The notes: generated by a model from the sequence alone, not told the origin. Numbered from the stretch's first letter, positions 62 through 14,209 are shown. The stretch: 14,209 nt of DNA from Candidatus Nanohalobium sp. (GCA_042217545.1 JBDGSM010000042.1:11826-26034), one strand, 5' to 3'. Numbers and translations are program-made.

Positions 62-719
62 ATGAAGTATGACGCCATGATCTTTGACTTTGACGGAGCT
101 CTGCTTGACCCACGGATTCGACTGGGCAGACAACGCCAGGAAGGAGAAAGCCCGTGAACTGGGCTATAACAACGATCTCTTTGAACTGAGAGCGCTCTTC
201 GAGGCAGAGAAATCTGCTGAAGCCATGAAACATTTCCTAGAAAGACATGAAATAGATGTAGAGGACCTGAAGACCTGGGAAAAACATGCAGAGCAGACAA
301 AGATAGATCTGGTGAAGAAAGGAGATCTAGGCCTCTATCCAGATGCCAGGAAACTCCTGGAAAATCTTGACGTGCCGAAGGCCCTGGTCAGTAACGCTTA
401 TGGAGAGGCCACGGATCGGATCGTCAGACATATGGGCCTTGACACCGAGTTCGAGTTCTGGAAAGCACCTAGCCTCAATGATATAGAAACCTACGTCGAA
501 AACATGAAGCCCAACCCGGATATGCTTCAGGAGGCAATGAACGCCATGAACTCTGAAAACGCTGTTATGGTCGGTGACTCAAAAACAGATGTAGGAGCGG
601 CGGAGAACGCGGGAATCGACTCCATCTACATCAACAGGTCAGGAGAGACTTTCGAAAAAACAACTTTCAACGCTGAAAGCCTTGAAGAAGTAAGGAAGAT
701 AGTCAGAGACAAGGCCTAG
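62..719 (+). CDS. HAD-superfamily hydrolase (phosphoglycolate-phosphatase-like), frameshifted near nt 107-111 (pseudogene or assembly indel)
   Basis: ATG62 frame gives MKYDAMIFDFDGALLD (HAD motif I, DxD) and then stops at TGA155-157. The next frame (track ORF 84-719) supplies motif II (LVSNA), motif III (KPNP) and motif IV (MVGDSKTDVGAAENAG). The two parts join around GAC-C-CAC (107-113). Confidence 0.85.
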
Positions 720-1444
720 GAGATCTTACCCATCATCTCTTCTGCACCTTCAACCAGTCTGGGTCCAGGCCTGTTCAGCAATGCATCATCGATCACGTAA
801 ACATCTCCGTTCTCCACAGCTGTTATATCCTGCCATCCAGGTCTTGAAAGGACTTTTTCCGTGTCTACATTTTTTCCTGCGCCGCAGACGTTGATGAAGA
901 TGTACTCAGGATCAAAACCTTTCAGTTTCTCCAGTTCAAACTCTCTGCTACGTTCACCTTCCTCGAGAAAATATTTTCCTCCTATCCTTTCTACAAGGCC
1001 TGGTATCCAGTTGCCTGATGCCATTACAGGGTTATTCCATTCCTCGCAGTAGATCCTGGGTGCGCCGGAGACATCTATTCCTGACAGGCCTTCTTTCATC
1101 TCTTTCACGAGTGAATTGGCCTTCTTTTCGGCGTCGAACCTTCTGCCAATCTTTTCTATGCTGCTGTAGATTTCTTCCACGGTCTGCGGAGCAACGTGCA
1201 GTACTTCGAGGCCTTCAAGCTCCTTCTTTATTGGTTCCTGGAGGCTGTCACTTGTCAGGATGAGGTCGGGGTCGATATTCCTGATCCTCTGGAAGTCTAT
1301 GCCTGATGTCCAGCCGCCTACTGACTTCTTTTTCCTGGCTTCCTCAGGGTGATTGCAGAGGCCTGTAGTTGCCACAAGATGTCTTTCAAGGTCCAGACGG
1401 TAGATTATCTCGGTGTTTGAAGGTGCCAGGGAGACTGTTTTCAT
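716..1444 (-). CDS. BtuF/TroA-like helical-backbone (cobalamin/Fe-siderophore) binding protein lacking a signal peptide
   Basis: Typical class III solute-binding motifs: VSLAPSNTEI, VGGW..IDFQRI..IDPDLILT, IYCEEW.NPVMASGNW, FDPEYIF, W.DITAVENGDVYVIDDALLNRPGPRLVEG. An in-frame TAA lies 11 codons upstream of the ATG. Confidence 0.85.
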   Translation of the reverse strand: MKTVSLAPSNTEIIYRLDLERHLVATTGLCNHPEEARKKKSVGGWTSGIDFQRIRNIDPDLILTSDSLQEPIKKELEGLEVLHVAPQTVEEIYSSIEKIGRRFDAEKKANSLVKEMKEGLSGIDVSGAPRIYCEEWNNPVMASGNWIPGLVERIGGKYFLEEGERSREFELEKLKGFDPEYIFINVCGAGKNVDTEKVLSRPGWQDITAVENGDVYVIDDALLNRPGPRLVEGAEEMMGKIS

Positions 1445-1470
1445 CGGAATGTTTGAGAGTTTAATGTTGC

Positions 1471-1478
1471 TTTTTTAA
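1471..1478. promoter_or_regulatory. Candidate shared TATA element of a divergent promoter
   Basis: TTTTTTAA lies at the centre of the 60-nt spacer, 27 nt from both divergent ATGs (1444 minus, 1505 plus). This is the usual spacing for leaderless archaeal mRNAs. Confidence 0.45.
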
Positions 1479-1504
1479 CTAAGAAGGGTTATTTGTTGGT
1501 ATAG

Positions 1505-1831
1505 ATGTTCCTGTCCATCTTTGACATGACCTACAGTATACTTACAGGTGTTATCTCTGTGGTGCTTGCCGTGGTCGCGTCCGCGATTATCTTCGAACTC
1601 AGTACGGATGAGGAGACAGCTCTCCACAGGTTCCATCTGAACCAGGAGGAGTCAGTTATGGATTTCCGTGTCTTCTTCCTTGCCAATATGGTCATGGTCG
1701 CTGCTTTTGTAATCTACTGGATAGGCGCAGTAGCAAATATCCCGTTACTGGAAAGCTTTAACAACTATATAATTTCATTATACGGAGTTTTTCTGGCTTC
1801 GCTGTTCACAAGGTGGTGGAGACGGTTCTGA
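1505..1831 (+). CDS. Small 3-TM membrane protein, hypothetical
   Basis: 108 aa with three hydrophobic stretches, a charged loop ETALHRFHLNQEES and a basic C-terminus TRWWRRF. Confidence 0.75.
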   Translation: MFLSIFDMTYSILTGVISVVLAVVASAIIFELSTDEETALHRFHLNQEESVMDFRVFFLANMVMVAAFVIYWIGAVANIPLLESFNNYIISLYGVFLASLFTRWWRRF

Positions 1832-2235
1832 ACAGCCCGTTAGGCTATATAGTGCAGAACTATCAGGCGGTACAGGCCTTAGCAGGTATAATTCTTTTCT
1901 CGGCGACTGCTTACTACAGTTACGGAATCGTTCAGAACCTGAAGGAGAAACAGGAGTACGCGTTAGCCCGTTTTTTCCTGAAGAGGAAGACAAGCAGGAG
2001 CTTCCTTGTGATCTCTGTCTCAGCACTTATACTTTCGTTCGGTATGACACTGAAGAATATAGGCAAGTTTACAGGCCAGGAAAGCTACGTAGCTATCGCA
2101 TTGATGAGCCACGTACTCATGCTTTTCGGGGTACTCTACTTCACGTTCAATATATATCTTATCACCCGGCCAGGCCTTGACCATGCATCAGGTAGAAAGA
2201 GCAGTGAAGAGGAAAACAAAGAGGAAACCCAGTAG
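1813..2235 (+). CDS. Small 3-TM membrane protein, hypothetical; probable paralog of 1505-1831
   Basis: About 140 aa, GTG start overlapping the upstream gene (exact start uncertain). Three hydrophobic stretches, loop EYALARFFLKRKTS, acidic tail. Confidence 0.75.
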   Translation: MVETVLNSPLGYIVQNYQAVQALAGIILFSATAYYSYGIVQNLKEKQEYALARFFLKRKTSRSFLVISVSALILSFGMTLKNIGKFTGQESYVAIALMSHVLMLFGVLYFTFNIYLITRPGLDHASGRKSSEEENKEETQ

Positions 2236-2290
2236 ATAAGGCCCGGGGTAACAGGAAGCTTTTAGAGCTTCGAGGCCTGACTTCCGTTTT

Positions 2291-3133
2291 ATGAATCACA
2301 GGATTGGAGCACACGTTTCTATTTCTGGAGGAGTTGAAAAAGCAGTGGAGAGACAGGAAGATGCTGGGGGTAACTGCGGACAGATCTTCGCGGGCTCTCC
2401 AAGGACCTGGGCAGTCTCGGAATATGAAGATGAGGATGGAGAAAGATTCCAGGAGCTGCGGGATCAGAAGGATCAGAACCCGTACGTAATCCACTCCACT
2501 TACCTGGTCAACCTGGCAACCCCTAAAGACGATCTATTTGAAAAATCTCTGAAATGCCTTCAGTCCGAGCTTGAAGCAGCGAAAAAACTTGGTGTCGAAT
2601 ACGTCGTCTTCCATCCTGGCGCTCACACCGGCTCAGGTAGAGAGAACGGTATTGAAAGGATCAGTGAAGGCCTTGACGAGCTTGATATACCGGAAGGTGT
2701 TAAAATTTTGCTTGAGAACACCGCAGGTAAAGGGACTACGCTCGGCAAATCCATGGGAGAGCTCCGGGAGATGATGGAGGCCTGTGACACGGACAACGGA
2801 AAGATCGGTGTATGTATAGATACATGCCACGCTCACGCCGCAGGCTACGAGCTGAGGGACGATGAAGGATTTGAAGATTTTCTGCAGGAGATTGAAGAGG
2901 ATCTGGGCCTTGAGAACGTTGATGTCCTGCATCTGAACGATTCAAAGGATGAGAAAGGCAGCGAAAGGGATAACCACGAGCATATCGGTCAGGGAAATAT
3001 AGGCCTTGAAGGCTTCAGGAACGTGGTTAACTCGGAGAACCTGGAGGACAAGCCGATGATCCTGGAGACGCCGGTTGAAGATGACCGGGGATACCGTGAG
3101 AATATCGAGGAGCTTCGGAAGCTGATCGAGTAA
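2291..3133 (+). CDS. nfo: Endonuclease IV (AP endonuclease family 2)
   Basis: Zn-ligand motifs of Endo IV are all present: IGAHVSISGG, HSTYLVNLA, VFHPG, LLENTAG, CIDTCHAHAAGY, HLNDSK, DNHEHIGQG, ILETP. Confidence 0.96.
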   Translation: MNHRIGAHVSISGGVEKAVERQEDAGGNCGQIFAGSPRTWAVSEYEDEDGERFQELRDQKDQNPYVIHSTYLVNLATPKDDLFEKSLKCLQSELEAAKKLGVEYVVFHPGAHTGSGRENGIERISEGLDELDIPEGVKILLENTAGKGTTLGKSMGELREMMEACDTDNGKIGVCIDTCHAHAAGYELRDDEGFEDFLQEIEEDLGLENVDVLHLNDSKDEKGSERDNHEHIGQGNIGLEGFRNVVNSENLEDKPMILETPVEDDRGYRENIEELRKLIE

Positions 3134-3154
3134 GGAGGCCTTGTACCTTCCTGA

Positions 3155-3166
3155 TTTTTCTTTTTT
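3155..3166 (+). terminator. Oligo-T archaeal terminator candidate after nfo
   Basis: TTTTTCTTTTTT about 21 nt downstream of the nfo stop. Confidence 0.5.
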
Positions 3167-3263
3167 AGGCGTTTATCCTTTGTGTTTTTAAGGCTCGTAC
3201 ACTGTTTCTTTTTTGGAAGAAAACTTCCATTTCACAACGAAAATTTTTGAGGTTATAGAAAAG

Positions 3264-3764
3264 ATGTCCAATATTCACAGAGATCAGCGCGTCGGTGTTT
3301 TTGTCGACGTCCAAAATATGTACTACAGTGCTAAAAATCTTTACAATTCTAAAGTGGATTTCGAGAAGCTTCTTGATTCCGCAGTGATGAACAGGGACCT
3401 TATCAGGGCCTCTGCGTACGTTATTCAGGCGGATACTCCGGATGAGAACAATTTCTTTGAAGCGCTTCGTAAGATTGGTTACGAGGTCAAGATTAAGGAG
3501 TTGAAGGAGTTCTATGGCGGTGAGAAGAAAGGTGACTGGGATCTCGGCATGGCAGTCGATATGATCCAGCAGGCCAAAAAGCTTGACACAATCGTTCTTG
3601 TGACTGGTGACGGGGACTTTGCTGTTCTTGTCGACCATCTGAGGGCGATGGGTTGCCGTGTAGAGGTCATGAGCTTTGGTAGAAGCAGTGCGAAAGAGCT
3701 GCGTGAATCCGCTACAAACTTCCTGGATATGGACGAGAAATCCGATAAGTTCCTTGTCGATTAA
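3264..3764 (+). CDS. NYN-domain (LabA/DUF88) PIN-like putative ribonuclease
   Basis: Motifs VFVDVQNMY, KKGDWDLGMAVD, LVTGDGDF, LRAMGCRVEV, ELRESA..F. ATG3264 is preferred over the track's TTG3213 because GAGGT (3249-3253) precedes it and the domain starts there. Confidence 0.9.
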   Translation: MSNIHRDQRVGVFVDVQNMYYSAKNLYNSKVDFEKLLDSAVMNRDLIRASAYVIQADTPDENNFFEALRKIGYEVKIKELKEFYGGEKKGDWDLGMAVDMIQQAKKLDTIVLVTGDGDFAVLVDHLRAMGCRVEVMSFGRSSAKELRESATNFLDMDEKSDKFLVD

Positions 3765-3776
3765 GTGGTGTTTGAG

Positions 3777-4946
3777 ATGAGCAGAGCACGTGATATATCC
3801 GCGGTAGAGGTGATGGAGGAAGAACTTTTCACGGTTAGCAGCGATAAATCAATCTCCCAGATCCGTGACAGGATGGAGGAGAACAATCTCAGGGCTGTAG
3901 CTGTTGTAGATGAGAAGAACCGTCTTGAAGGCGCTATCAGTTACAGGGACCTCATCAGGTACATCCAGTTCAATCCCAAGAAGACGAAGCTGGAGAAAGT
4001 TATGCATACTCCTCCCGAGTTCGAGTCCAGCGACAACCTTATCGAGCTGGCGGATTTAAGGATTAACTCGGGCAGGAAGCTGCTCGTAGCTAAGGAAGGT
4101 AAGAAGCTGAAAGGAGTCGTGAGCGACGAACAGTTCCGCTCGGCACTTCTTGAAGCGGAGGAGATAGATAACGTTTCTACAAGAGATCTGGCGACCTACG
4201 AAGTTATCCACGCATTCGAGGATGACTCCATAGAGAAGGTCAGGCACCAGATGCTCGACAATAATATCTCCCGTGTCCCGATACTGGACGAGAACGGCAA
4301 CCTTGTCGGTGTTCTAAGGAGCACGGATGTCCTGAGAACATTGATCACCCGCGAAGGTCAGGCGCCAGGCGGGACCTCAGGAGACTCGCTTGAGGACACA
4401 CAGATCGCTGGCGGGAACGAGAAACAGGGACTCTCAAAGATAAGAGTTTCCGAGATCATGAACCGGACTCCCACAACACATGAAGGCCATTTCTCAGGTA
4501 AAGAAGCCGTAGAACTGATGAACGACAGGGAAAGCCACGAAGTTATCATCGTGGATGACAAGTACCCTGAAGCCGTCATAACGGTCAAGGACTTCATCCG
4601 TGAGTTAACAAACCTTGAAATGGGTAATGCAGTTCTTGTCAATCTTGTAGGCCTTGACGTTCCAGAGGAGAAAGCAGCAGTTCACGAAAAGATCAAGACC
4701 CAGATCCAGGGCTCCCTGGGACGTAAGTTGGACAATCCCGAAGAGATCAACCTCCATGTTAAGAAAGCCGAAAAGGACGGTAAAGAGCACAGGTACGAAG
4801 TTACACTGAAGCTTTTCTCTGATCTCGGCCAGTTCACAGTTAACGAAGAGGCCTGGGACCTGCTTGAAGTAGTAGACTCAGCACTGGAAGAGTTGAACAC
4901 CCAGGTCAGGAAGAAGAAAGAGAAACGCAAGGAGCACAGGCGTTAA
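3777..4946 (+). CDS. 4xCBS + C-terminal HPF/RaiA-like protein; probable archaeal ribosome hibernation factor (Hib-type)
   Basis: Four CBS repeats (LRAVAVVD..LEGAISYRDL; RKLLV..LKGVVSDE; ISRVPILD..LVGVLRSTDV; HEVIIVD..EAVITVKDF). They are followed by about 100 aa with the HPF pattern INLHVKK..RYEVTLKL..FTVNEEAWDLLEVVDSALEELNTQVRKKKEK. ATG3777 follows GGTG; the alternative start is GTG3765. Confidence 0.8.
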   Translation: MSRARDISAVEVMEEELFTVSSDKSISQIRDRMEENNLRAVAVVDEKNRLEGAISYRDLIRYIQFNPKKTKLEKVMHTPPEFESSDNLIELADLRINSGRKLLVAKEGKKLKGVVSDEQFRSALLEAEEIDNVSTRDLATYEVIHAFEDDSIEKVRHQMLDNNISRVPILDENGNLVGVLRSTDVLRTLITREGQAPGGTSGDSLEDTQIAGGNEKQGLSKIRVSEIMNRTPTTHEGHFSGKEAVELMNDRESHEVIIVDDKYPEAVITVKDFIRELTNLEMGNAVLVNLVGLDVPEEKAAVHEKIKTQIQGSLGRKLDNPEEINLHVKKAEKDGKEHRYEVTLKLFSDLGQFTVNEEAWDLLEVVDSALEELNTQVRKKKEKRKEHRR

Positions 4947-5302
4947 GCGCCAATCTCCTGTTTTTCCATTTTCTCTATTTTATCTTCATCTGTCATTCCG
5001 TACTTCTCCGATATCTTCTTGAATGACATAACGCTCCACATAAGGTAGAGGAAGACAAAGATCAACGCAAGATACAGCGGATACCTTGCGAAGGATATCT
5101 TTCGGAATGCCGCATTGTAAAGTCCCCAGTAAGCGATGTATATTATCAGTACGCCTATAACAAGCATCAATCGATGTGAGAACTCCTTAAGTACGTCCGT
5201 CTCGATCTTCTGAGACGCATTCCAGACTATGAAGAAGCTGATAAGACCTATACTCAGCGTCAGCGACGTATTAATCGATAACAGGGTTAAACTGATAGCC
5301 AT
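4943..5302 (-). CDS. Small 3-TM membrane protein, hypothetical
   Basis: 119 aa, three hydrophobic helices and a charged C-terminal tail. Its stop overlaps the convergent CBS gene stop in TTAA (4943-4946). Confidence 0.75.
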   Translation of the reverse strand: MAISLTLLSINTSLTLSIGLISFFIVWNASQKIETDVLKEFSHRLMLVIGVLIIYIAYWGLYNAAFRKISFARYPLYLALIFVFLYLMWSVMSFKKISEKYGMTDEDKIEKMEKQEIGA

Positions 5303-5333
5303 AAAACGAAATTACCGAGCCCTTCTTAAATAA

Positions 5334-6494
5334 TTACCCAGTCTCCTTGATCTCCACCACCCTCACGTCAGCATCGCTGCCGACCATGGACCTGAACTTC
5401 TGACCACTGTAGTTCCCGGTTACAAGCACAGTAATCTGGTTGTTGCGGAAGTGGATGGAGATAAGATCTTTTCCGAAGAAGTTCTGAGCCTGCATCTCGA
5501 TATGTTTCTCACTGCTGTAACCCTGGTAATGATGGAGGTTGTCGTAACCTATAGGCACAAGTATGAGGCCCAGGACGATCATCGCAGCAGGTATAACCTT
5601 CCTCAACTTCTCAGCCTTCTGCTTCTTGTAGTAAGTCGTCGGCGAGAGGCCTATGATCTTGAAAGAGACATAACCCGAAAGAAGAACAGCAAGGATATTG
5701 ATAGCTGCTATCGAAGCGGCGTGAAGGGCGTAAGTCAGGTTTCCTATCTTGAGGCCTATCCCTGCTCCTGCCAGAGGCGGTACAAGAGCTATCGCAACTG
5801 CTACCCCAGCTATCTGGTCTCTGAAGCCTGTCGCGAAGGTGAAGGCTGCAGCTGCTCCAACGAGGAAAGACAGTAGGACTACGGGCATTCCGAAGGAGAC
5901 GATGATCTGTAGAGCTGGAGTCATCGTGACAGGGAACGGCAGGACTGCGATGTAGGAGATGGCTATCGCCATCAGGAAGCTTAGGAGGCCTGAAACGAGG
6001 CTTTCCTTCATCAATGAGCTGTCGCCTATCGCGAGAGAGATAGCTCCTGATACGAAAGGCGAGAGAAGAGGTGCAAGCATCATCGCCCCTATGACCACGA
6101 TGAGATTGTTCAGTATGAGGCCGTAGGACGCGATAGCGGATGAGAGCGCGACTAAGGCCCACTGAGCCTTGGAGAAGCCCGAGAATCCCTGGGCCTTGCT
6201 GTAGATCTCTTTCTGTGACAGGAGGGAAGCGCTACCTCTCGTCTTCTGCCCTTTCTGTATCAGGCTTTCCTGTTCAAGTATCCTTATAGAAAGGTCTCCG
6301 GACTCGATCTCCGTGTCCTTCAGCTCTTCCGTGAGATCGTCTATATCGTCCGCGTCCACAGTCGCTGTGAACTCAAGCACCTCGTCTCCCTGCTTCTCAG
6401 CCTCGCTGGAGGTTATATCGTTGCTGTACTTGTCGAGGACCTTGTCAACCTCCTCGTTGAACTCCTTCGGGACGGTGACCTGTACCTGTCTCAC
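5334..6494 (-). CDS. TIGR00341/DUF389 family membrane protein
   Basis: N-terminal MRQVQVTVP soluble domain, then a multi-TM region with the DUF389 motifs LSSAIASYGL, VVIGAMMLAPLLSP and IAGVAVAIALVPPL. GTG start. Confidence 0.88.
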   Translation of the reverse strand: MRQVQVTVPKEFNEEVDKVLDKYSNDITSSEAEKQGDEVLEFTATVDADDIDDLTEELKDTEIESGDLSIRILEQESLIQKGQKTRGSASLLSQKEIYSKAQGFSGFSKAQWALVALSSAIASYGLILNNLIVVIGAMMLAPLLSPFVSGAISLAIGDSSLMKESLVSGLLSFLMAIAISYIAVLPFPVTMTPALQIIVSFGMPVVLLSFLVGAAAAFTFATGFRDQIAGVAVAIALVPPLAGAGIGLKIGNLTYALHAASIAAINILAVLLSGYVSFKIIGLSPTTYYKKQKAEKLRKVIPAAMIVLGLILVPIGYDNLHHYQGYSSEKHIEMQAQNFFGKDLISIHFRNNQITVLVTGNYSGQKFRSMVGSDADVRVVEIKETG

Positions 6495-6525
6495 AGGAGA
6501 GGATTGTCAGGCCTTGGTTAATTAG

Positions 6526-8322
6526 CTATGCCCTGACCTTCAGCTTGCCGGACTCCGAGGCACCGATCACGCGGTTCGCGAGCTCGGACTGCTTTGTCAA
6601 CGAGATATCTCCGTTTTTCCCTACAGTAGCTGTGAAAAGGAACTCGTCTCCATCGTAAATATCTACCTCTGTACCGGACATGTTCTCACCGGCATGTATC
6701 AGGACGGAGTTACCCCGCTCCTCTACATCATAGGAAACCTCGGACTTGGTAGTAGCAGTGTTCTTCGGCTCGACAGTGATGTCAAGGCCTAACTCGTCCT
6801 CCAGGCGGTCGATATTTTCTCCACCTTTACCTATAACATGGGAAACTTCGTCCTCCGAGACCATGAGGCGGATATGATTGTCCGAGATAAACTCGATCTC
6901 GGGACTGTTTACCCTGTTGCCGATAAGATGCATCAACTGTTCCTTGGCAAGTCTCTGTGCACCAGACTCCTTCGAGGCCTCCGAGACTGGAACGACTACT
7001 GTCTCCTCTCCGTACGTGTAGATCTCGTAGACTGGTGCGTCGTCTTCGAACCTGGAGATCTGGATAACAGGTCGTGCCAGGTCCTCCTCTGTCATGCCTT
7101 CAGGAACCTTGACAACGAGCTCCAGCTTGTAGACCTCCTCAATCTGTGCATCCTTGATAAATACTACAGTATCACAGACCTCGGGGATCATACCAAGCTC
7201 CACCCTCCCGATCAAACGCTGAACTGCATCAACAGCCTCTGAAGCATGGACAACTCCGATCATTCCAACACCAGCCATACGCATGTCGGAGAAGACCTCG
7301 AAATCATCAGTCTTCCTTACTTCATCGAAGACTGTGTAATCAGGCCTTGCGAGCAGGAGGAAGTCACCTGTATCCTCCATCGAATCCTCAAGGCCTGTGT
7401 ACTGCGTGACATCAGGGCCTACATCCAGGTCCCGGGGCTTCTCCATAGTCTTCACGACCTCCCCGTTCTCGCTGTAGTACTCCGCAAGAGCCTGGGAAAA
7501 AGTAGACTTACCGTGTCCTGGTGCACCGGCGACAAGGATTCCCTCTGCCTCGGTCTTGAGTCTTGTAAGAAGTTCATCGCTCATCGCATAATCATCCAGG
7601 GACACCTTGGCAACAGGCCTCACAGCTGTAATCTCCGCTGCCTCGGAGAACGGAGGCCTTGTCATCGCTATCCTGTACCTTCCAAGCTGGATGACTGTTG
7701 CGCCTTCCTTCTCCATCTCGACCAGGCCTTCGTCGCTCATTTCGGCTGCTTCCACGGTCTCATTGATCAATGAGTACATCTTTCCACGTGAAAGCTGTTT
7801 ATTATCTATTTCCTCAAGTTCAAACTCTCCTGGAAGGCCTCTCTTCGCCTTAGGGTTCGCACCTTCTTTCAGGTGTACGCTCATTGTCTCATCGTCGAAG
7901 TATTCTTCCAGAGGAAACTCCACGTTCTTCTCCTTCTCGTACTGTTTACATTCTATGCCTTTAGCCCGGGCGACCTTTGCCTGTACTCCATCTGCGGTGT
8001 AAAGCGTGGCTCCGATCTCCTCAGCCATGTCACGAATCAGTGCGTCTATCCTTCCATTATGTGATAGCTCTATCTCCTCAGTAGTCGGTTTCCTGCCTCT
8101 GAAGCTGATTTCAAGGTCTTCCCTATCTGCCAGCATCCTGATCTTTTTGATCTCCTCGATGCCTTTGTAACCGGTCTCTTTACCTTCATTGGCCTGATTC
8201 TCCAGCTCGTCGACAACGAACTCAGGTATTATTATATCTGCTCTCAACTCACCTCTCTCGATCAGATCTGAAAGCTTTCCGTCGATAATGATAGAGGTGT
8301 CAGGTACGATTTTCTCTGTCAT
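6526..8322 (-). CDS. PIN-domain P-loop ATPase with KH domain (PINA / MJ1533 family)
   Basis: PIN domain (IVPDTSIIID, VVDELE, RIDALI, LYTAD), Walker A GAPGHGKST, Walker B TVFDEVR, GVGMIGVVHA and a KH GxxG loop (VIGKGGENI). ATG8322 is preferred over GTG8331 by TATA-like spacing. Confidence 0.92.
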   Translation of the reverse strand: MTEKIVPDTSIIIDGKLSDLIERGELRADIIIPEFVVDELENQANEGKETGYKGIEEIKKIRMLADREDLEISFRGRKPTTEEIELSHNGRIDALIRDMAEEIGATLYTADGVQAKVARAKGIECKQYEKEKNVEFPLEEYFDDETMSVHLKEGANPKAKRGLPGEFELEEIDNKQLSRGKMYSLINETVEAAEMSDEGLVEMEKEGATVIQLGRYRIAMTRPPFSEAAEITAVRPVAKVSLDDYAMSDELLTRLKTEAEGILVAGAPGHGKSTFSQALAEYYSENGEVVKTMEKPRDLDVGPDVTQYTGLEDSMEDTGDFLLLARPDYTVFDEVRKTDDFEVFSDMRMAGVGMIGVVHASEAVDAVQRLIGRVELGMIPEVCDTVVFIKDAQIEEVYKLELVVKVPEGMTEEDLARPVIQISRFEDDAPVYEIYTYGEETVVVPVSEASKESGAQRLAKEQLMHLIGNRVNSPEIEFISDNHIRLMVSEDEVSHVIGKGGENIDRLEDELGLDITVEPKNTATTKSEVSYDVEERGNSVLIHAGENMSGTEVDIYDGDEFLFTATVGKNGDISLTKQSELANRVIGASESGKLKVRA

Positions 8323-8376
8323 ATGTTTCACAGTTCGGGGTAAAGCTTGAAAAATAGCTTGATTGAACTCTATGAG

Positions 8377-8388
8377 AAAAGAAAAAAA
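8377..8388 (-). terminator. Oligo-T terminator candidate after the acidic orphan gene
   Basis: The minus strand reads TTTTTTTCTTTT about 11 nt after the stop at 8400. Confidence 0.45.
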
Positions 8389-8399
8389 GATAGAACACG

Positions 8400-8714
8400 C
8401 TAGAGTTTTTCTGCAGGAGTCAGGCTACCGTCGTCCTCAAGTACGTCATCAACGTCGAACTCGTAGGAAAGATCTCCATCTTCCTGCTCATCGTATCCCT
8501 CAACAGAGACAGCACCATCTCCCCCGTAGGCCTCAGCCATAGCATCAGGATCTAGCGCGTTATCTACAGCATAATTGTCAACCAGCTCATCCTTCGCACC
8601 CCATTCACTCCCCAGGACTGCGAGTACGTTCTCCATCTCCGCCGTGACAACCTCTATATCGCCTGAGCCGTTCTCTGCACGGGCTTCAAGTTCCAAAGGT
8701 TTAGATGCCGACAT
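8400..8714 (-). CDS. Small, very acidic hypothetical protein
   Basis: 104 aa with 30 D/E and 4 K/R. TTTATTAA lies 25-32 nt upstream of the ATG and a T-tract lies downstream. Confidence 0.7.
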   Translation of the reverse strand: MSASKPLELEARAENGSGDIEVVTAEMENVLAVLGSEWGAKDELVDNYAVDNALDPDAMAEAYGGDGAVSVEGYDEQEDGDLSYEFDVDDVLEDDGSLTPAEKL

Positions 8715-8779
8715 GGGATAAATCTTATCGTCGAAAACTTAATAAACCAACAGTTATTTGCTACTCTGCAATAACATTT

Positions 8780-9646
8780 TTAGATGTCCAGCATACCGTC
8801 ATCGTCAAAGAACTCGTCCTCGTCCTGTCCCAGCTCTGTTTCGACAGTTCCCTCCTCAAAGACATCGGGTTCCGCGAGATCGACCTGGGTCAGCACATGC
8901 TGGGCAACATCTCTTCCGGTCTTCGTGAACATGTAGTTGTCGGTAAGAAGGCCTTCATCTCTCAAGCCTGTCGCCAGGCCCCTCACAGTGCTCTCGGGAA
9001 CATCAAGTTCCTCGCTGATCTCCGTGGGGCTCATACCAGAACCGTACAGGAAGAAGGCCTTTATCTTCTCTCCGCTCTTAGACTGCTGTTACCGTAGTCC
9101 TACGTGAAAAGACTGCGGTAGAAATCTCCTGCATCTATCTCCAGGCCCGAGAAAACTGTTTCGATGGCTTCGCTGCTCCTTATGAACTCCTGTCCAAGAT
9201 CCGTTATCTCACCTTCTTGAGGGGAGAATTGCCCTCTTTCGACAAACTTAATTCGAGAAGGCCTGCGTCCCGGTAATCATGTATCCAGTTGTTTCTTGTA
9301 CTCCTGTTATCTGTAGGCATATCCGTGTCGTAATGGTTGGAGAAGGCTTTCAGGCCTTCAAGTTTGCTGTAGCTGTTCCCTCCGGAGTTCGTTGTCTTCA
9401 GTGCATCGTATATCTCGTCAAGGTTCTTGAACGCTTCAACGGCTTCTCCGTACTCTTCTTCATCTTCCTCTTTGAAGCTTTCCAGGTTCCCGTCGTCGAA
9501 GACGCTCCCTATGCTCCATTCCAGCTCTCCGTCATATGTTTCTCCTGTATCCACGATCTTGCCATATTCCTCGAAAGGCCTTGCTCTCTGCATAATCTGC
9601 AGGATGTATCTCTGTGCGTCGTCAGCGCATTCGGGCCTACCGCCAT
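8780..9646 (-). pseudogene. Disrupted tandem winged-helix (wHTH) protein gene, about 290 codons when reassembled
   Basis: ATG9646 gives MAVGPNALT; shift near 9620; DAQRYILQIM...TRNNWIHDYRDAGLLE; shift near 9217-9251; EGEITDLGQEFIRSS...FYRSLFT ending at TAG 9102-9100; shift near 9085; SKSGEKIKAFFLYGSGMSPTEISEELDVPESTVRGLATGLRDEGLLTDNYMFTKTG... to the stop at 8780. Two wHTH-like 'L/YRDxGLL...TxxG' units are visible. TATTTA lies 25-30 nt upstream of ATG9646. Confidence 0.65.
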
Positions 9647-9799
9647 ATAGGAGGCCTCGCAGCCAAGAACTAAATACATATTTACTGGAAGATATACAAC
9701 ACAACAAAACCATTCTTTTGCTACCTAACAGTGAATATTCAATCTGGGTCAACATGGATAGGTATTTAAGGAAAAGGCCTCTAATTTCAGCATACGAAA

Positions 9800-9847
9800 A
9801 CACCATATGTGTGGGGGGAGGGCTTGGTTCTCCACAACATATGTGTG
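9800..9847. promoter_or_regulatory. Candidate tandem NrdR boxes
   Basis: ACACCATATGTGTGGG (9800-9815) and CCACAACATATGTGTG (9832-9847) partly match the bacterial consensus acaCwAtATaTwGtgt. They are 32 bp apart and directly upstream of nrdR-nrdJ. Confidence 0.6.
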
Positions 9848-9859
9848 ATGCGCCACACA

Positions 9860-9870
9860 GAAAGTTAAGT
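9860..9870 (+). promoter_or_regulatory. BRE/TATA-like promoter of nrdR-nrdJ
   Basis: GAAAG-TTAAGT, with TTAAGT at -30 to -25 relative to ATG9895. Confidence 0.5.
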
Positions 9871-9894
9871 TGAATTAGAGGTAACGCTGCCGTT

Positions 9895-10338
9895 ATGAAA
9901 TGCATCTACTGTGATGAAGGGGACACGAAAGTTGTAGACACGAGGGAATCCTCGAAGAAGATTCGCCGCAGGAGAGAGTGCAAGAACTGCGGACGCCGCT
10001 TCACGACGTATGAAACTGCGGAATCTATGGAGATAGAAGTCACGAAGCGGGACGGCGAAGACGAAACGTTCAGCGAGGAAAAGATCCGTAACGGCGTCCA
10101 GAGGGCAGCGAAGAAGACATCACTGGATGAAGATCAGATCGAAGAAGTAGTTGAGGCCGTGAAAGACAGGATACGCGGTAAAAAATGCGTTAAGGCCTCG
10201 GAGATCGGCGAGTTTGTGAAAGAAGAGTTGAAGAAACGCGACAAGGTCGCATACATACGGTTCGCTTCCGTTTACGACTCCTTTGATGACGTGGAGTCGT
10301 TTGAGAAGGAAGTGAAAGCGCTGCAAAATGATAACTAG
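9895..10338 (+). CDS. nrdR: Transcriptional repressor NrdR
   Basis: Zn ribbon CIYC...TKVVDTR...IRRRRECKNCGRRFTTYE, ATP-cone (VTKRDG..E.FSEEKI) and C-terminal AYIRFASVYDSF. It lies directly upstream of an RNR gene. Confidence 0.96.
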   Translation: MKCIYCDEGDTKVVDTRESSKKIRRRRECKNCGRRFTTYETAESMEIEVTKRDGEDETFSEEKIRNGVQRAAKKTSLDEDQIEEVVEAVKDRIRGKKCVKASEIGEFVKEELKKRDKVAYIRFASVYDSFDDVESFEKEVKALQNDN

Positions 10339-10361
10339 AACTCATACTTTAGGTTGAAACC

Positions 10362-13300
10362 ATGGCTAACAAGCTAGAACAGAAGTCAGAATTCAAGTTA
10401 CCCGTTAAAAGGGTCAAAGGAGACACCGTCGAAGAACGCTTGACGGAGAACGCTTACGAGCGTATCCTGCCGTCACGCTACCTTCTCAAGGATGAAGACG
10501 GTAACGTCACCGAGACCCCAGAAGAAATGTTCGAGCGCGTCGCAAAAAACGTCGCGCAGCCCGACAAAAACTTTGATGATATAGATTACGAGGAATCCTG
10601 GAAGGAGTTCAAGGACCTGATGACGCATCAGGCCTTCATGCCGAACTCCCCGACACTGATGAACGCTGGAGCCTCACTTCAGCAGCTAAGTGCCTGTTTT
10701 GTTGTCCATCCTGAAGACGATATGGACTCTATCTTTGATACTGTTCACGACGCTGCGAAGATCTTCCAGTCCGGTGGAGGCATGGGATACCCTTTCCACC
10801 TTCTGAGGCCTAAAGGAGACATCGTCAAGTCCACAGGAGGCATTGCCTCAGGACCAATGTCTTTCCAGCAGGTCTTCGACACGATGTGTGGGACCATCAA
10901 GCAGGGAGGAAAGAGAAGAGGAGCACAGATGGGTATAATGAAAGTCGATCATCCCGACATCCTCAGGTTTATTGTTGCAAAGAGAAAGGAAGGCAACCTC
11001 TCCAACTTCAACATCTCCGTAGGCATCACCGAAGACTTCATGGAAGCAGTGAAAAACGACGAGGAATACACATTGATCAACCCACGCACAGGAGAACCGT
11101 TCGAAGTCAGTCAGAAGACGGCAGAGTTCTACAACAGCGATGAGGAATGGTATCCAGAAGCCGCAGGATCCGACCAGGGAAGAGACGACAACTTCTGGAG
11201 AGATCATGCCTCAAGCTTCGGCGACGAAATCAAGGACTACGAAATCGAACTGGAACCAGGAGAAGAAATGACTTTACCCGCGAGATTCATCTGGGAAACA
11301 CTTATCGATGGTGCATGGAGAAACGGCGAACCAGGCCTCTACATGTACGACGAAGCCAACAAGATGCACTCGTTTGACGTAGAGAAACATCCTGAACATA
11401 GAATGGAAGCCACAAATCCATGTGTAACAGGAGATACACTGATATCAACTGGCCAAGGGGTTTTCACTGCAGAAGAGCTGAATAAACAGAAGATAGCTAC
11501 AGATGTGGTTGTCGACAGCAGAAGAAGTGATGAAAAAGTTAAGGAAGCCTCCAGCGTATACAAGACAGGAACAAAGGATGTCTACAAGCTAGAGACTGTT
11601 GAAGGCTTCGAACTGAGACTCACGGCAGATCACCAGGTAATGACTGGAAATGGCTGGAAAGAAGCACAGAACCTGGAAGAAGACGACCAGGTACATATTC
11701 TTGACCGTGAAGGCTCCTTTGGCCACGGAGGAACTGAAAAGGAAGGTAGAGTTCTTGGATGGCTTGTCGGAGACGGCCAGATGAAAGACAGTGAGAAAAG
11801 AGCTGTCCTGCATTTCTACGATCAGGACACCGAGATCTCAGAGGAGTTCGCAGGATACGCCAACGAGGTAGTAAGAACTCCGGAAGGAAACGCAGACTAC
11901 GAAATAGGCGTCCAGCAAGTACAGAGAAGGGAAGGTCATAGACAGAAAGCAGAAGCAAAAGAGGAAAGAGTTAGATCACAAAGACTCTACGAACTGGCCT
12001 CGGAATACAGCCTGGATGAAGAAAAGCTGCAGGTTCCAGAGAAGGTATTCAGATCCAGCAAAGAGTTAGCCAGAGGATTCCTGCAGGGCCTGTTCACAGC
12101 CGACGGCTCCGTACAGGGCAACGTTGAAAAAGGAGTGTCTGTAAGGCTCTCCAGCAGCGATGAAGAACTACTCAAGGAGGCACAGCAACTGCTGCTCAAC
12201 TTCGGAATCTACAGCAAAGTCTACACAGAGAGAAGAGAGAAAGGAAGAAGAGAACTTCCGGATGGCAAAGGAGGAAAGAAAGAGTACGATACCAAGGCAC
12301 AGCACGACCTGATGATCAGTAAAGGAAGCCTGAAGACATTCCAGGAAAAAATAGGGTTCCTCAGAGAAGACAAGGAAAAGAAGCTGGAAGAAAAACTCTC
12401 CAACTACACAAGAGGGCCTTACACAGAGAAGTTCATGGCAACCGTTGAAAACCTGGAGAAAGACGGACATGAAGATGTCTACGACCTGACAGAGCCAGAC
12501 ACTCACAGCTTCATAGCAAACGGCTTAGTAGTCCACAACTGCGGAGAACAACCGTTGGAGAACTACGAGGCCTGTAACCTGGGACACATCAACCTGTCCC
12601 TCATGGTAGAGGATCAGGGAGACGGCGCCGCACTCTCATTCGCGGAATGGAAAGAAGAAAACAAGGAGCGATACGACTTCAGCGATCAGTCAGATCTGAA
12701 CGCTGCAATGCAGGAATACCTCCAGGAAGCACTTGACATGGAAGAATTCGAGTACGTTGCAAAGACCAGCTTCAGGTTCCTGGACAATGTAGTTACGATG
12801 AGCGACTTCCCGCTGGAAGAAATCGAGGACAAGATCTCCTCCTTGAGAAAGGTAGGCCTCGGACTCATGGGATTCGCGCAGATGCTGATCCAGTTAGGCA
12901 TCCGCTACGGAAGCGACGAATCAGTCGCAGCAGCAAAAGAAATCCAGAGACTCATCACACGGTTCAGCATCGAGGAATCCAACCGGCTTGCGGATGAAAG
13001 AGGAAAGTTCCCTGACTGGGATGACTCCAAATGGGCGAACCCCACCGAACACAGGGAATGGTTCAGACAGTACACAGGAGGCCTTGACCCAGAAGAGTAC
13101 GAGGACGGACTCGCGATGAGGAACCACAACACAACAACGATCGCGCCGACCGGAACCACCAGCATGATCGGGAACACCTCTGGTGGATGCGAGCCGATCT
13201 ACAGCCTGGCGTACTTCAAGAACGTCGCGAAGGATATCCAGGGAGAGGACATGCTCGTCGAGTTCGACGACTACTTCATCAAGGCCCTGGAAGCGAACGA

Positions 13301-14209
13301 CGTCGATGTGGAAGAGGTCAAACAGGCTGCTCAGGAGAAGATGGAGAACAACGAATGGGAGGGAGTAGAAAGCATCCCGGACGATGTTCTACCGCCTGAG
13401 GTCAAGAAGATATTTGCCACGACTGAACAGGTAGCACCAAAGGAGCACGTCGATGTACAGGCTGCTTTCCAGACTCACAACCACTCAGGGATCTCCAAGA
13501 CCATCAACTTCCCGAACGAGGCAACCAAGGAAGATGTGAGGGAAGCGTACATGCGGGCCTACGACAAAGATGTCAAGGGAATGACAGTTTACAGAGATGG
13601 CACCAGAGACACTCAAGTCATGCAGACTAATCAGGAAAATACCTTGACCGACATGGACAAGGTCGACATGCTCTCCGAAGTCATTGAAGAGTTCGGCGGA
13701 GCAGAATCCCTGCTGACAAGCAACGAGTTCCAGGAAGTCACAGCACAGACAGAGATGGAGGTGCAGGAAGAAACAGAAGGCCTCGACCAGGAAGTCACAC
13801 AGGAAGGAATCCAGGCCGACACAGACAAGCCAGAGGAACACACAGAGATGAGCAAAAGTCACGGAGTCGAAGAAAGGCCTAACGTCGTAAAGGGAACCAC
13901 GCAGGAGATCGAAACCGCCTACGGAGACCTTTTCGTCACCATCAACGACGCAGAGAACAACGGACCGTTCGAAGTATTCGCCCGCGTAGGTAAGTCAGGC
14001 GGATACACACAATCCTTCACAGAGGCCCTGGGAAGAGTCTCCAGTCTAGCGTTGAGAAGCGGTGCAGACGCAGAAGAACTGATCAACCAGCTCGACGACA
14101 TCAGGTCGCCGCAGATCAGCTGGGACAACGGACAGCAGATCCACTCCATCCCTGACGCGATCGCAGAAGCCGTGAAGAGACACCTTCAGGGCGGAAGTGG
14201 AAGCCAGCA
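10362..14209 (+). CDS. nrdJ: Adenosylcobalamin-dependent (class II) ribonucleotide reductase with intein; 3'-partial
   Basis: One frame runs from ATG10362 (MANKLEQK...[16 protein letters not shown]) to the window end. It contains [87 protein letters not shown] and KGMTVYRDG. An acidic linker and a TSCPD-like domain ([30 protein letters not shown]) follow. There is no N-terminal ATP-cone. Confidence 0.95.
11421..12539 (+). mobile_element. Intein (373 aa) with LAGLIDADG homing endonuclease in nrdJ
   Basis: Begins CVTGDTLI after ATNP. Block B LTADHQV, endonuclease motifs VLGWLVGDG and [10 protein letters not shown], block F VYDLT. Ends [11 protein letters not shown] followed by C-extein CGEQ. 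Removing it restores NPCGEQ. Confidence 0.96.

Follow-up and report, generated by a model that had tools for sequence, protein, structure and literature searches.

The palindrome AGGCCT is dispersed in large excess over a 14,209-nt stretch of DNA from Candidatus Nanohalobium sp. (GCA_042217545.1 JBDGSM010000042.1:11826-26034), here called the window, and over the rest of its source genome. We propose that AGGCCT is a putative palindromic Chi-like site read by an AddAB-like helicase-nuclease, a reading to which we give a probability of about 0.45. We infer such a likely role from the enrichment, grammar and spacing of the word, and from the co-occurrence, domain architecture and predicted fold of the two gene products. 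New in this work are the observations that, among the families searched, no DNA methyltransferase common to the AGGCCT-rich genomes was found, that all of these genomes carry the AddAB-like pair, and that NurA, the usual archaeal resection nuclease, was detected in none.

Over-representation of AGGCCT in the window and in the genome

The window contained 45 copies of AGGCCT, as against a mean of 3.79 and a maximum of 11 in 200 dinucleotide shuffles, none of which reached 45. Among its 77 GGCC tetramers, 45 had A..T flanks, 17 were AGGCCC/GGGCCT and 15 were of other kinds. The enrichment claimed in the original prediction, which had been made from the window alone, was thus borne out, as was its statement that the sites occupy all three codon phases and genes on both strands. 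It had also placed five sites in spacers. Those at 2273, 3136 and 6509 were indeed spacer sites, while those at 9652 and 9775 are uncertain, being inside a longer open reading frame (ORF; 9204-9905) and outside the called gene (9204-9593). An additional spacer site was found at 9055.

The source genome (G000; 1,032,751 bp, 82 contigs, 92% complete) contained 3,699 copies. AGGCCT was its top-ranking hexamer and was present on all 82 contigs. Proteins closely homologous to one encoded by G000 carry the label Nanohaloarchaea or Ca. Nanohalobium in their sources. The excess was 15.4-, 14.9-, 9.7- and 12.4-fold over backgrounds of order 0 to 3, respectively, which were trained with the site masked. 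By frame, and using our own gene calls, 523, 1040 and 1512 copies were counted against 122, 195 and 269 under synonymous shuffling. Outside called genes the density was 3.9 per kb (581 copies in 148 kb), compared with 3.5 per kb in coding sequence, and it was about doubled just after stop codons. A dicodon-preserving null, which absorbs five of the six letters, still left a 1.8-fold excess in frames 1 and 2 (1.1-1.3 in the AGGCCT-poor relative G020). It had been considered that the enrichment might vanish under such a null, be confined to one frame or be missing from the rest of the genome; it survived the null, spanned all frames and held genome-wide. The comparison with the highly iterated palindromes (HIPs) of cyanobacteria therefore holds as a description: AGGCCT is palindromic, about 15-fold over-represented regardless of frame and coding, genome-wide and lineage-specific.

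Grammar and spacing of the sites

The proportion of protein-permitted places occupied by AGGCCT was 75%, 61% and 72% by frame in G000, 57-66% in G019 (51% in frame 1) and 70-85% in G003, as against 3-6% in poor G020. Peptides compatible with the word were 1.38-1.67 times as frequent in G000 as in aligned G020 orthologs, and 1.2-1.9 times as frequent over three rich genomes, which indicates that amino acids were changed.

In G000 AGGCCT reached 16 times its expectation and the six core neighbours only 0.8-1.4 times theirs; the raised variants were flank variants only, mainly AGGCCC/GGGCCT. The grammar of G019 was less strict and was log-additive per strand, with values of about 2 for other GGCC, 4-6 for one A/T flank and 13 for both. 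All nine neighbour classes were far rarer than AGGCCT. In G003, AGGTCT (0.48) and AGGGCT (0.57) were low, and such lows are expected once Gly codons saturate. Every type of substitution away from AGGCCT is opposed, and this pattern would require selection, drive or repair favouring the whole word. Vsr-type conversion of a single edge was rejected because the core neighbours were not drained in G000; one biased repair step should be unable to give the pattern.

Sites were also short of close neighbours. When occupancy was permuted inside each frame and peptide class, 110 pairs 6-20 bp apart were expected in G000 and 62 were observed (z -6.7); the corresponding figures were 53 and 23 for G019, and 81 and 48 for G003. 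The deficit also held when permutation was made within genes. It extended furthest in G000 (50 bp), less far in G019 (35 bp) and least in G003 (20 bp). No other inverted or direct hexamer pairs were depleted at close range, and hairpin avoidance was rejected as the cause of the repulsion since other inverted pairs were unaffected. In G019 the depletion of inverted half-site pairs reached further than that of direct pairs. Shared occupancy between orthologs had an odds ratio of 1.5-2.5, as against 1.0-2.5 for five control hexamers, in a comparison of low power at about 60% amino acid identity. The property favoured would be the density of AGGCCT rather than its particular positions.

Nucleosome-like 10-bp phasing was weak and did not exceed that seen at AAGCTT or AGATCT. 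Kilobase periodicity was absent from G019 and from 760 kb of G003 in a Fourier test (p 0.6-0.8), a method other than the damped-sine one of PMC5861425. Intergenic sites had a flank bias of the form TTnA..TnAA, and occupied sites had a weak A/T excess at distances of 5 and 15 bp from their centre. By strand, half-sites in G019 numbered 1750 and 1897 with no clear switch; the full palindrome cannot be polarised, and the origin was not located.

As is asked of a Chi site, AGGCCT is more frequent in core DNA than in DNA of recent acquisition. An integrated element of about 28 kb (G019:C1:205000-233000; L028-L029) contained 4 copies and was nearly word-free, and genes without homologs were less occupied than others (0.64 versus 0.66-0.72 in G000, 0.50 versus 0.54-0.62 in G019). 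By our own reading, the element contains an integrase-like gene, heavy-metal resistance or transport cargo and many small ORFs without an assigned function.

Distribution of AGGCCT among relatives and in other DNA

We compared the 50 genomes of the family (f1) and called rich those with AGGCCT at 7-25-fold over chance, the GC content being taken from the loci. Thirteen were rich, namely all members of genera g1, g18 and g21 and two of the six of g2; G034 was weaker, at 7-fold. In a one-gene tree of the PIN-ATPase-KH protein (30 of 37 genomes), the poor genomes G020 and G032 were sister to the rich G003 and G023, and the rich state has therefore switched more than once.

Comparable density was found in none of 24 genomes outside the family. 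Among other prokaryotes none of 79 loci longer than 2.5 kb, of 120 matches listed from 27 of 64 database parts, was above 7.3-fold. No virus with an acidic proteome was among the top viral matches (81 loci longer than 2.5 kb of 121 listed), which cannot show absence. A non-acidic viral contig of IMG/VR (L253 and L257) had 16 AGGCCT in 8.1 kb, or about 10-fold, and several other viral loci were at 5-8-fold. In samples of 3-22 kb from poor genomes, no alternative word was hyper-abundant near the level of AGGCCT. ACCGG/ACCGGT was raised 2-4-fold in several of them (ACCGG 2.5-4-fold in loci of G011, G016, G032 and G010), and GGCC was strongly avoided in G017, G018 and G021 (0.1-0.3).

No paper describing the over-representation of AGGCCT or its role in archaea was found in the open literature, subscription journals being outside the coverage. 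By term search, the word was absent from the main text, supplements excluded, of PMC4390886, PMC11001535, PMC10266531 and PMC10609329.

A probable replacement of NurA by an AddAB-like pair

The AddB-like gene was found in all 13 rich genomes and in 16 of the 37 others. NurA was detected in none of the 13 and in 21 of the 37. The two were nearly exclusive, with both in three and neither in three of the 50 genomes. In all 13 rich genomes AddA was long enough to include its nuclease domain. The arrangement is like that of a Chi system: a UvrD protein with a PD-(D/E)XK domain is adjacent to a second PD-(D/E)XK protein, for which the predicted structure matches AddB. A VRR-NUC nuclease, which has the same family frequency as AddB and served as a control, was rejected (29 of 50 genomes, 8 of 13 rich, p = 1). 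The AddAB-like pair probably replaced NurA as the machine for resection of double-strand breaks.

Within genus g2, the rich G003 and G023 had the pair without NurA, the poor G068-G070 had NurA without the pair, and the poor G035 had neither. The NurA-like proteins of G068-G070 are encoded by ORFs of 456-468 amino acids and are longer than the others (about 325). Thirteen poor genomes had AddB and no NurA, and in eight of them the AddA beside addB stopped short of the nuclease: G015, G021, G032, G033 and G066 had the truncated AddA only, and G010, G027 and G065 had a longer copy elsewhere. The richest of the poor genomes were G065 (3.0-fold) and G010 (2.6-fold). Among the rest, G013 had a fragmented addB, G028 had no AddA match and G064 was outside the AddA check. 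AGGCCT was not significantly richer in poor AddB-only genomes than in NurA genomes (p 0.68).

A small ORF, presumably RelE-like, lies between addB and the truncated addA in G021 and G033 (L440, L446). The AddAB-like pair is also widespread in haloarchaea (L551-L617), where it is sometimes plasmid-borne, and occurs in Hadarchaeota; its function appears to be unstudied.

Predicted fold and signature residues of the AddB-like protein

The AddB-like protein, of about 855 amino acids, was only 10-12% identical to Bacillus subtilis AddB and had no match to the NCBIfam AddB model. By sequence alignment to solved structures, a weak Cas4 match alone was obtained. Its predicted structure (predicted local distance difference test score, pLDDT, 85) gave five B. 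subtilis AddB chains as the top fold matches (E 4e-11 to 6e-10), ahead of AdnA, UvrD and RecC, with low template modelling scores (TM-scores) of 0.35-0.37. It has three scattered cysteines and no four-cysteine iron-sulphur set.

The N-terminal 250 residues were somewhat more alike between the rich clades (0.34-0.47 versus 0.31-0.38 per 50-residue block). This region would correspond to the part of B. subtilis AddB that scans for Chi (PMC3321194). Eight signature residues were fixed beforehand, seven of nine from the clade comparison and one by eye. From 103 non-redundant loci, 15 identical to proteins already used were set aside, which left 88 new ones. Six of these were enriched at least 6-fold, and all six had 7-8 of the eight residues. 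None of the 79 new loci scoring six or fewer was above 3.2-fold.

Methyltransferases and other genes screened

The original prediction had offered two kinds of explanation. The first, a methyltransferase with biased repair, was left unsupported as no DNA methyltransferase was common to the rich genomes. The second was a protein-binding mark, and of its forms a recombination or self-recognition mark fits best, with the AddAB-like pair as the candidate reader. The C5 methyltransferase profile PF00145 matched 12 of 37 genomes profiled, one of the nine rich ones sampled and none of the four closed rich ones. The N4/N6 profile PF01555 was above the cut-off in one of five rich relatives, and its match in G000 resembles what we take to be a tRNA methyltransferase. 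Motif scans gave no candidate common to G000, G019 and the available part of G003. The methyltransferase that co-occurs with a HIP was therefore not found, some methyltransferase families being outside the profile search. MutS was found in none of five genomes, nor was DprA in the same number. NucS occurred in rich and poor genomes alike, and that of G019 was 77-84% identical to NucS of both kinds, highest to poor G020.

For the gene screen, G000 was compared with G019 (whole), G003 (760 of 1,046 kb, 73%) and G020 (contigs 1-20). It left 149 candidates, since G020 has gaps, and the DNA-related ones were then profiled. A 120-aa histone-fold protein (37 of 37 genomes, rich and poor alike), a 407-aa nuclease-like protein (33 of 37, not tracking the word) and RadC (33 of 37, whatever the state) were rejected. 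An 86-aa acidic protein without a fold match tracked the word partly: it was present in seven of 50 genomes, six of them rich, was found in none of the five g21 genomes and was present in poor G069. The HerA-family profile PF01935 matched in five of five genomes and was too broad to interpret. The genes nucS and radC were divergent neighbours just upstream of RNA polymerase genes (G000:C28:3-1116; G019:C1:841582-843117); G020 retained nucS and had lost radC.

Features of the window and of the source genome

The coordinates of features are collected in Table 1. In the PIN-ATPase-KH gene of the window there were 8 sites, as against 0-2 in the orthologs of non-rich relatives. One of the eight sites in the ribonucleotide reductase gene lies inside an intein of roughly 1.1 kb. 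This is a LAGLIDADG intein at about residues 356-730; the protein also has a TSCPD domain, an NrdR-like gene (9895-10338) precedes its gene, and contigs recovered from the same habitat join up across it. Elsewhere in G000, a giant gene for a protein of 8,305 amino acids (G000:C9:32587-57504, plus strand) contained 80 AGGCCT and a HerA-family ATPase match near its end. The words CTAG, CCAA/TTGG, CTAA/TTAG and CTTA/TAAG were depleted in G000, at 0.5-0.7 of expectation.

Table 1. Positions of AGGCCT sites and of genes discussed in the text. Positions without a prefix are counted from the first letter of the window.
Feature	Position	Strand	Remark
Dispersed AGGCCT palindromes, 45	329..13880	.	Local sample of 3,699 genome-wide sites
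Spacer site	2273..2278	.	Between ORF 1813-2235 and endonuclease IV-like gene
Spacer site	3136..3141	.	Directly past stop codon of AP_endonuc_2 gene
Spacer site	6509..6514	.	Between DUF389 gene and PIN-ATPase-KH gene
Spacer site	9055..9060	.	Between ORFs 8780-9034 and 9204-9593
PIN-ATPase-KH gene	6526..8331	-	8 sites, with every phase represented (RP, EAS, xGL)
Ribonucleotide reductase gene	10362..14207	+	Open at window end; 8 sites in all three phases
AddA-like gene	G000:C17:39063-41795	-	910-aa UvrD helicase with C-terminal PD-(D/E)XK nuclease; outside window
AddB-like gene	G000:C17:41792-44359	-	855-aa protein with own PD-(D/E)XK nuclease; outside window
86-aa acidic protein gene	G003:C1:181960-182220 (L159:1960-2220); G000:C7:15008-15190	- (L159)	

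Discussion

Chi sites are described as AGCGG, acting with AddAB, in B. subtilis (PMC3321194, PMC4614115, PMC5443536) and as GCTGGTGG, acting with RecBCD, in Escherichia coli (PMC8022716). AGGCCT resembles them in being short, GC-rich, over-represented, poorer in recently acquired DNA and not tied to position. It also resembles them in co-occurring with a one-motor, two-nuclease pair, of which the second subunit has a predicted AddB-like fold. It differs from Chi in being palindromic, unpolarised and archaeal, in occurring about once per 280 bp and in filling most allowed positions. The protein, too, differs from B. subtilis AddB in its low identity and its lack of the four-cysteine set.

The other comparison is with HIP1, which is GCGATCGC; alternate cyanobacterial HIPs such as GGCGCC are also on record (PMC4390886, PMC5861425). 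Like HIP1, AGGCCT is a hyper-abundant, frame-independent palindrome of genes and spacers that is on or off between relatives and whose one-off variants are partly raised. Unlike HIP1, it was not accompanied by a methyltransferase in our searches, it has no kilobase periodicity, and at the divergence tested its positions are not conserved above controls. It is 6 bp long and 67% GC, and its density exceeds the range of 1000-2000 per Mb stated for HIPs. In Alcanivorax borkumensis SK2 the same hexamer is methylated and cut by a restriction-modification system, with 1,674 sites reported (PMC12128166); no such enzyme was common to the rich nanohaloarchaeal genomes.

In the Chi-like reading, AddA would unwind DNA from a break, and AGGCC(T) would be recognised, as its strand passes, by the AddA nuclease acting with the inactive helicase-like domain of AddB. 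Recognition would attenuate degradation and make the end available for recombination, and a palindrome would work from either direction. If recognition at each site is partial, each extra AGGCCT would help unless it is right beside another; selection or Chi-favoured recombination could then fill most of the available positions, and newly arrived DNA without the word would be degraded further. For AddAB, passages of PMC5443536 give a recognition of about 0.23 per Chi and suggest that clustered sites are not recognised independently; on such terms a high density would be of value, and a second site close to the first would add little. In B. subtilis, residues of the AddA nuclease take part in binding Chi and in forming its pocket (PMC4614115), which fits the loss of AGGCCT with AddA truncation. 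We hold a more extended account tentatively, at somewhat less than even odds: AGGCCT would be the first archaeal Chi site, and a palindromic one; HerA-NurA would have been given up for an AddAB-like pair; lineages with the intact pair would have saturated their genomes, changing proteins; and the word would have been lost with loss of the AddA nuclease or return of NurA. In the literature on AddAB, NurA and Chi, subscription journals again excepted, we found no Chi-type signal described for archaea.

Several points weigh against the Chi-like reading. Known Chi sites are non-palindromic and polarised, and occur once per 5 kb in E. coli (PMC8022716), while the half-sites of AGGCCT show no clear chromosome-scale polarity in G019 and its density far exceeds that of E. 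coli Chi. G005 (1.5-fold) and G014 (1.0-fold) have the intact pair and no NurA, yet show no enrichment, and the AddB of G005 has most of the signature residues. Where haloarchaea have the pair, its loci show no AGGCCT excess. The AddB proteins of rich genomes fall in separate clades, not in one, and the diagnostic columns of the rich clades rank only 29 of 495 clade sets. Among the new loci, L466 (8 of 8), L472 and L461 (7 of 8) are not enriched, and the six rich ones are 53-85% identical to rich-clade proteins; the signature test is therefore only partly independent. The choice between AddAB and NurA largely follows one deep split with about three or four independent contrasts, so that Fisher p values overstate the association, and shared ancestry could make the link. 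The only poor genome in the screen was G020, which is incomplete, G003 was covered to 73%, and seven gene candidates besides NurA were profiled family-wide; a better candidate may have been missed. Finally, a homodimeric protein binding duplex DNA would give the same pattern of flanks and spacing.

Such a protein, of a chromatin or architectural kind, with a footprint of 20-50 bp on duplex AGGCCT, is an unlikely explanation. Selection would keep the density of its sites, and the AddAB link would be one of shared ancestry. The palindrome, the strict core with graded flanks and the short-range exclusion would all be expected of it, as would the intergenic flank bias and the A/T excess near occupied sites. 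Against it, the histone-fold protein, compared by presence only, is common to rich and poor genomes, phasing and kilobase periodicity gave no support, and the gene screen yielded no other DNA-binding candidate.

A ratchet of methylation-directed repair, as proposed for HIP1 (Elhai 2015), is improbable. A methyltransferase, undetected or supplied by the haloarchaeal host, would mark AGGCCT, and repair would retain the marked strand, so that the word would accumulate without function. From PMC4390886 we infer that such a process can favour the gain of sites and hinder their loss for every type of substitution, and that competition between neighbouring marks could repel sites. Methylation of AGGCCT does exist in Alcanivorax (PMC12128166), and it has been proposed that a nanohaloarchaeon passed a methyltransferase to its host (PMC11001535). 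The absence of a common C5 or N4/N6 enzyme or motif-bearing candidate speaks against it, with D12, N6_Mtase and Vsr profiles outside the search. So do the lack of MutS in five genomes and the published nanohaloarchaeal motif, GDGCHC (PMC10266531). The REBASE tables of PMC10609329 could bear on the question of a methyltransferase.

Mismatch cleavage or gene conversion that is biased by sequence but independent of methylation, and in which, for example, a NucS variant or a small protein favours the site-bearing strand, is quite improbable. NucS is present where MutS is absent, and the 86-aa protein is mostly of rich genomes. Nevertheless, the NucS of G019 is closest to that of a poor genome, and the 86-aa protein, lacking a fold match, was not found in the g21 genomes and is present in a poor one.

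Neisseria and Haemophilus uptake sequences are precedents for accumulation by molecular drive. A DNA-uptake signal built up in this way, as hypothesised for HIP1, would agree with protein-changing accumulation and A/T-rich flanks, and HIP1 correlates with type IV secretion genes according to the abstract of PMC13756078. It is very improbable here, as DprA was found in none of five genomes (ComEA/ComEC being outside the search), RadC is present regardless of state, and spacing effects stop within 50 bp. A bias of codons, dicodons or amino acids, or an artefact of binning, has a negligible chance of being the cause: the dicodon null does remove much of the signal, but the occurrence of the word in all frames, in spacers, on every contig and in closed relatives, and the low occupancy of G020 orthologs, refute it.

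Highly iterated palindromes have gone three decades without a proven cause. If the Chi-like reading is true, a named repair enzyme would account for one of them, with no need of methylation. Some relatives have AGGCCT in excess and others do not, and one particular enzyme pair is found in every rich genome, which reduces the question to a two-protein nuclease assay. The near-clean split of the family between NurA and the AddAB-like pair matters even if AGGCCT is not the signal of the enzyme.

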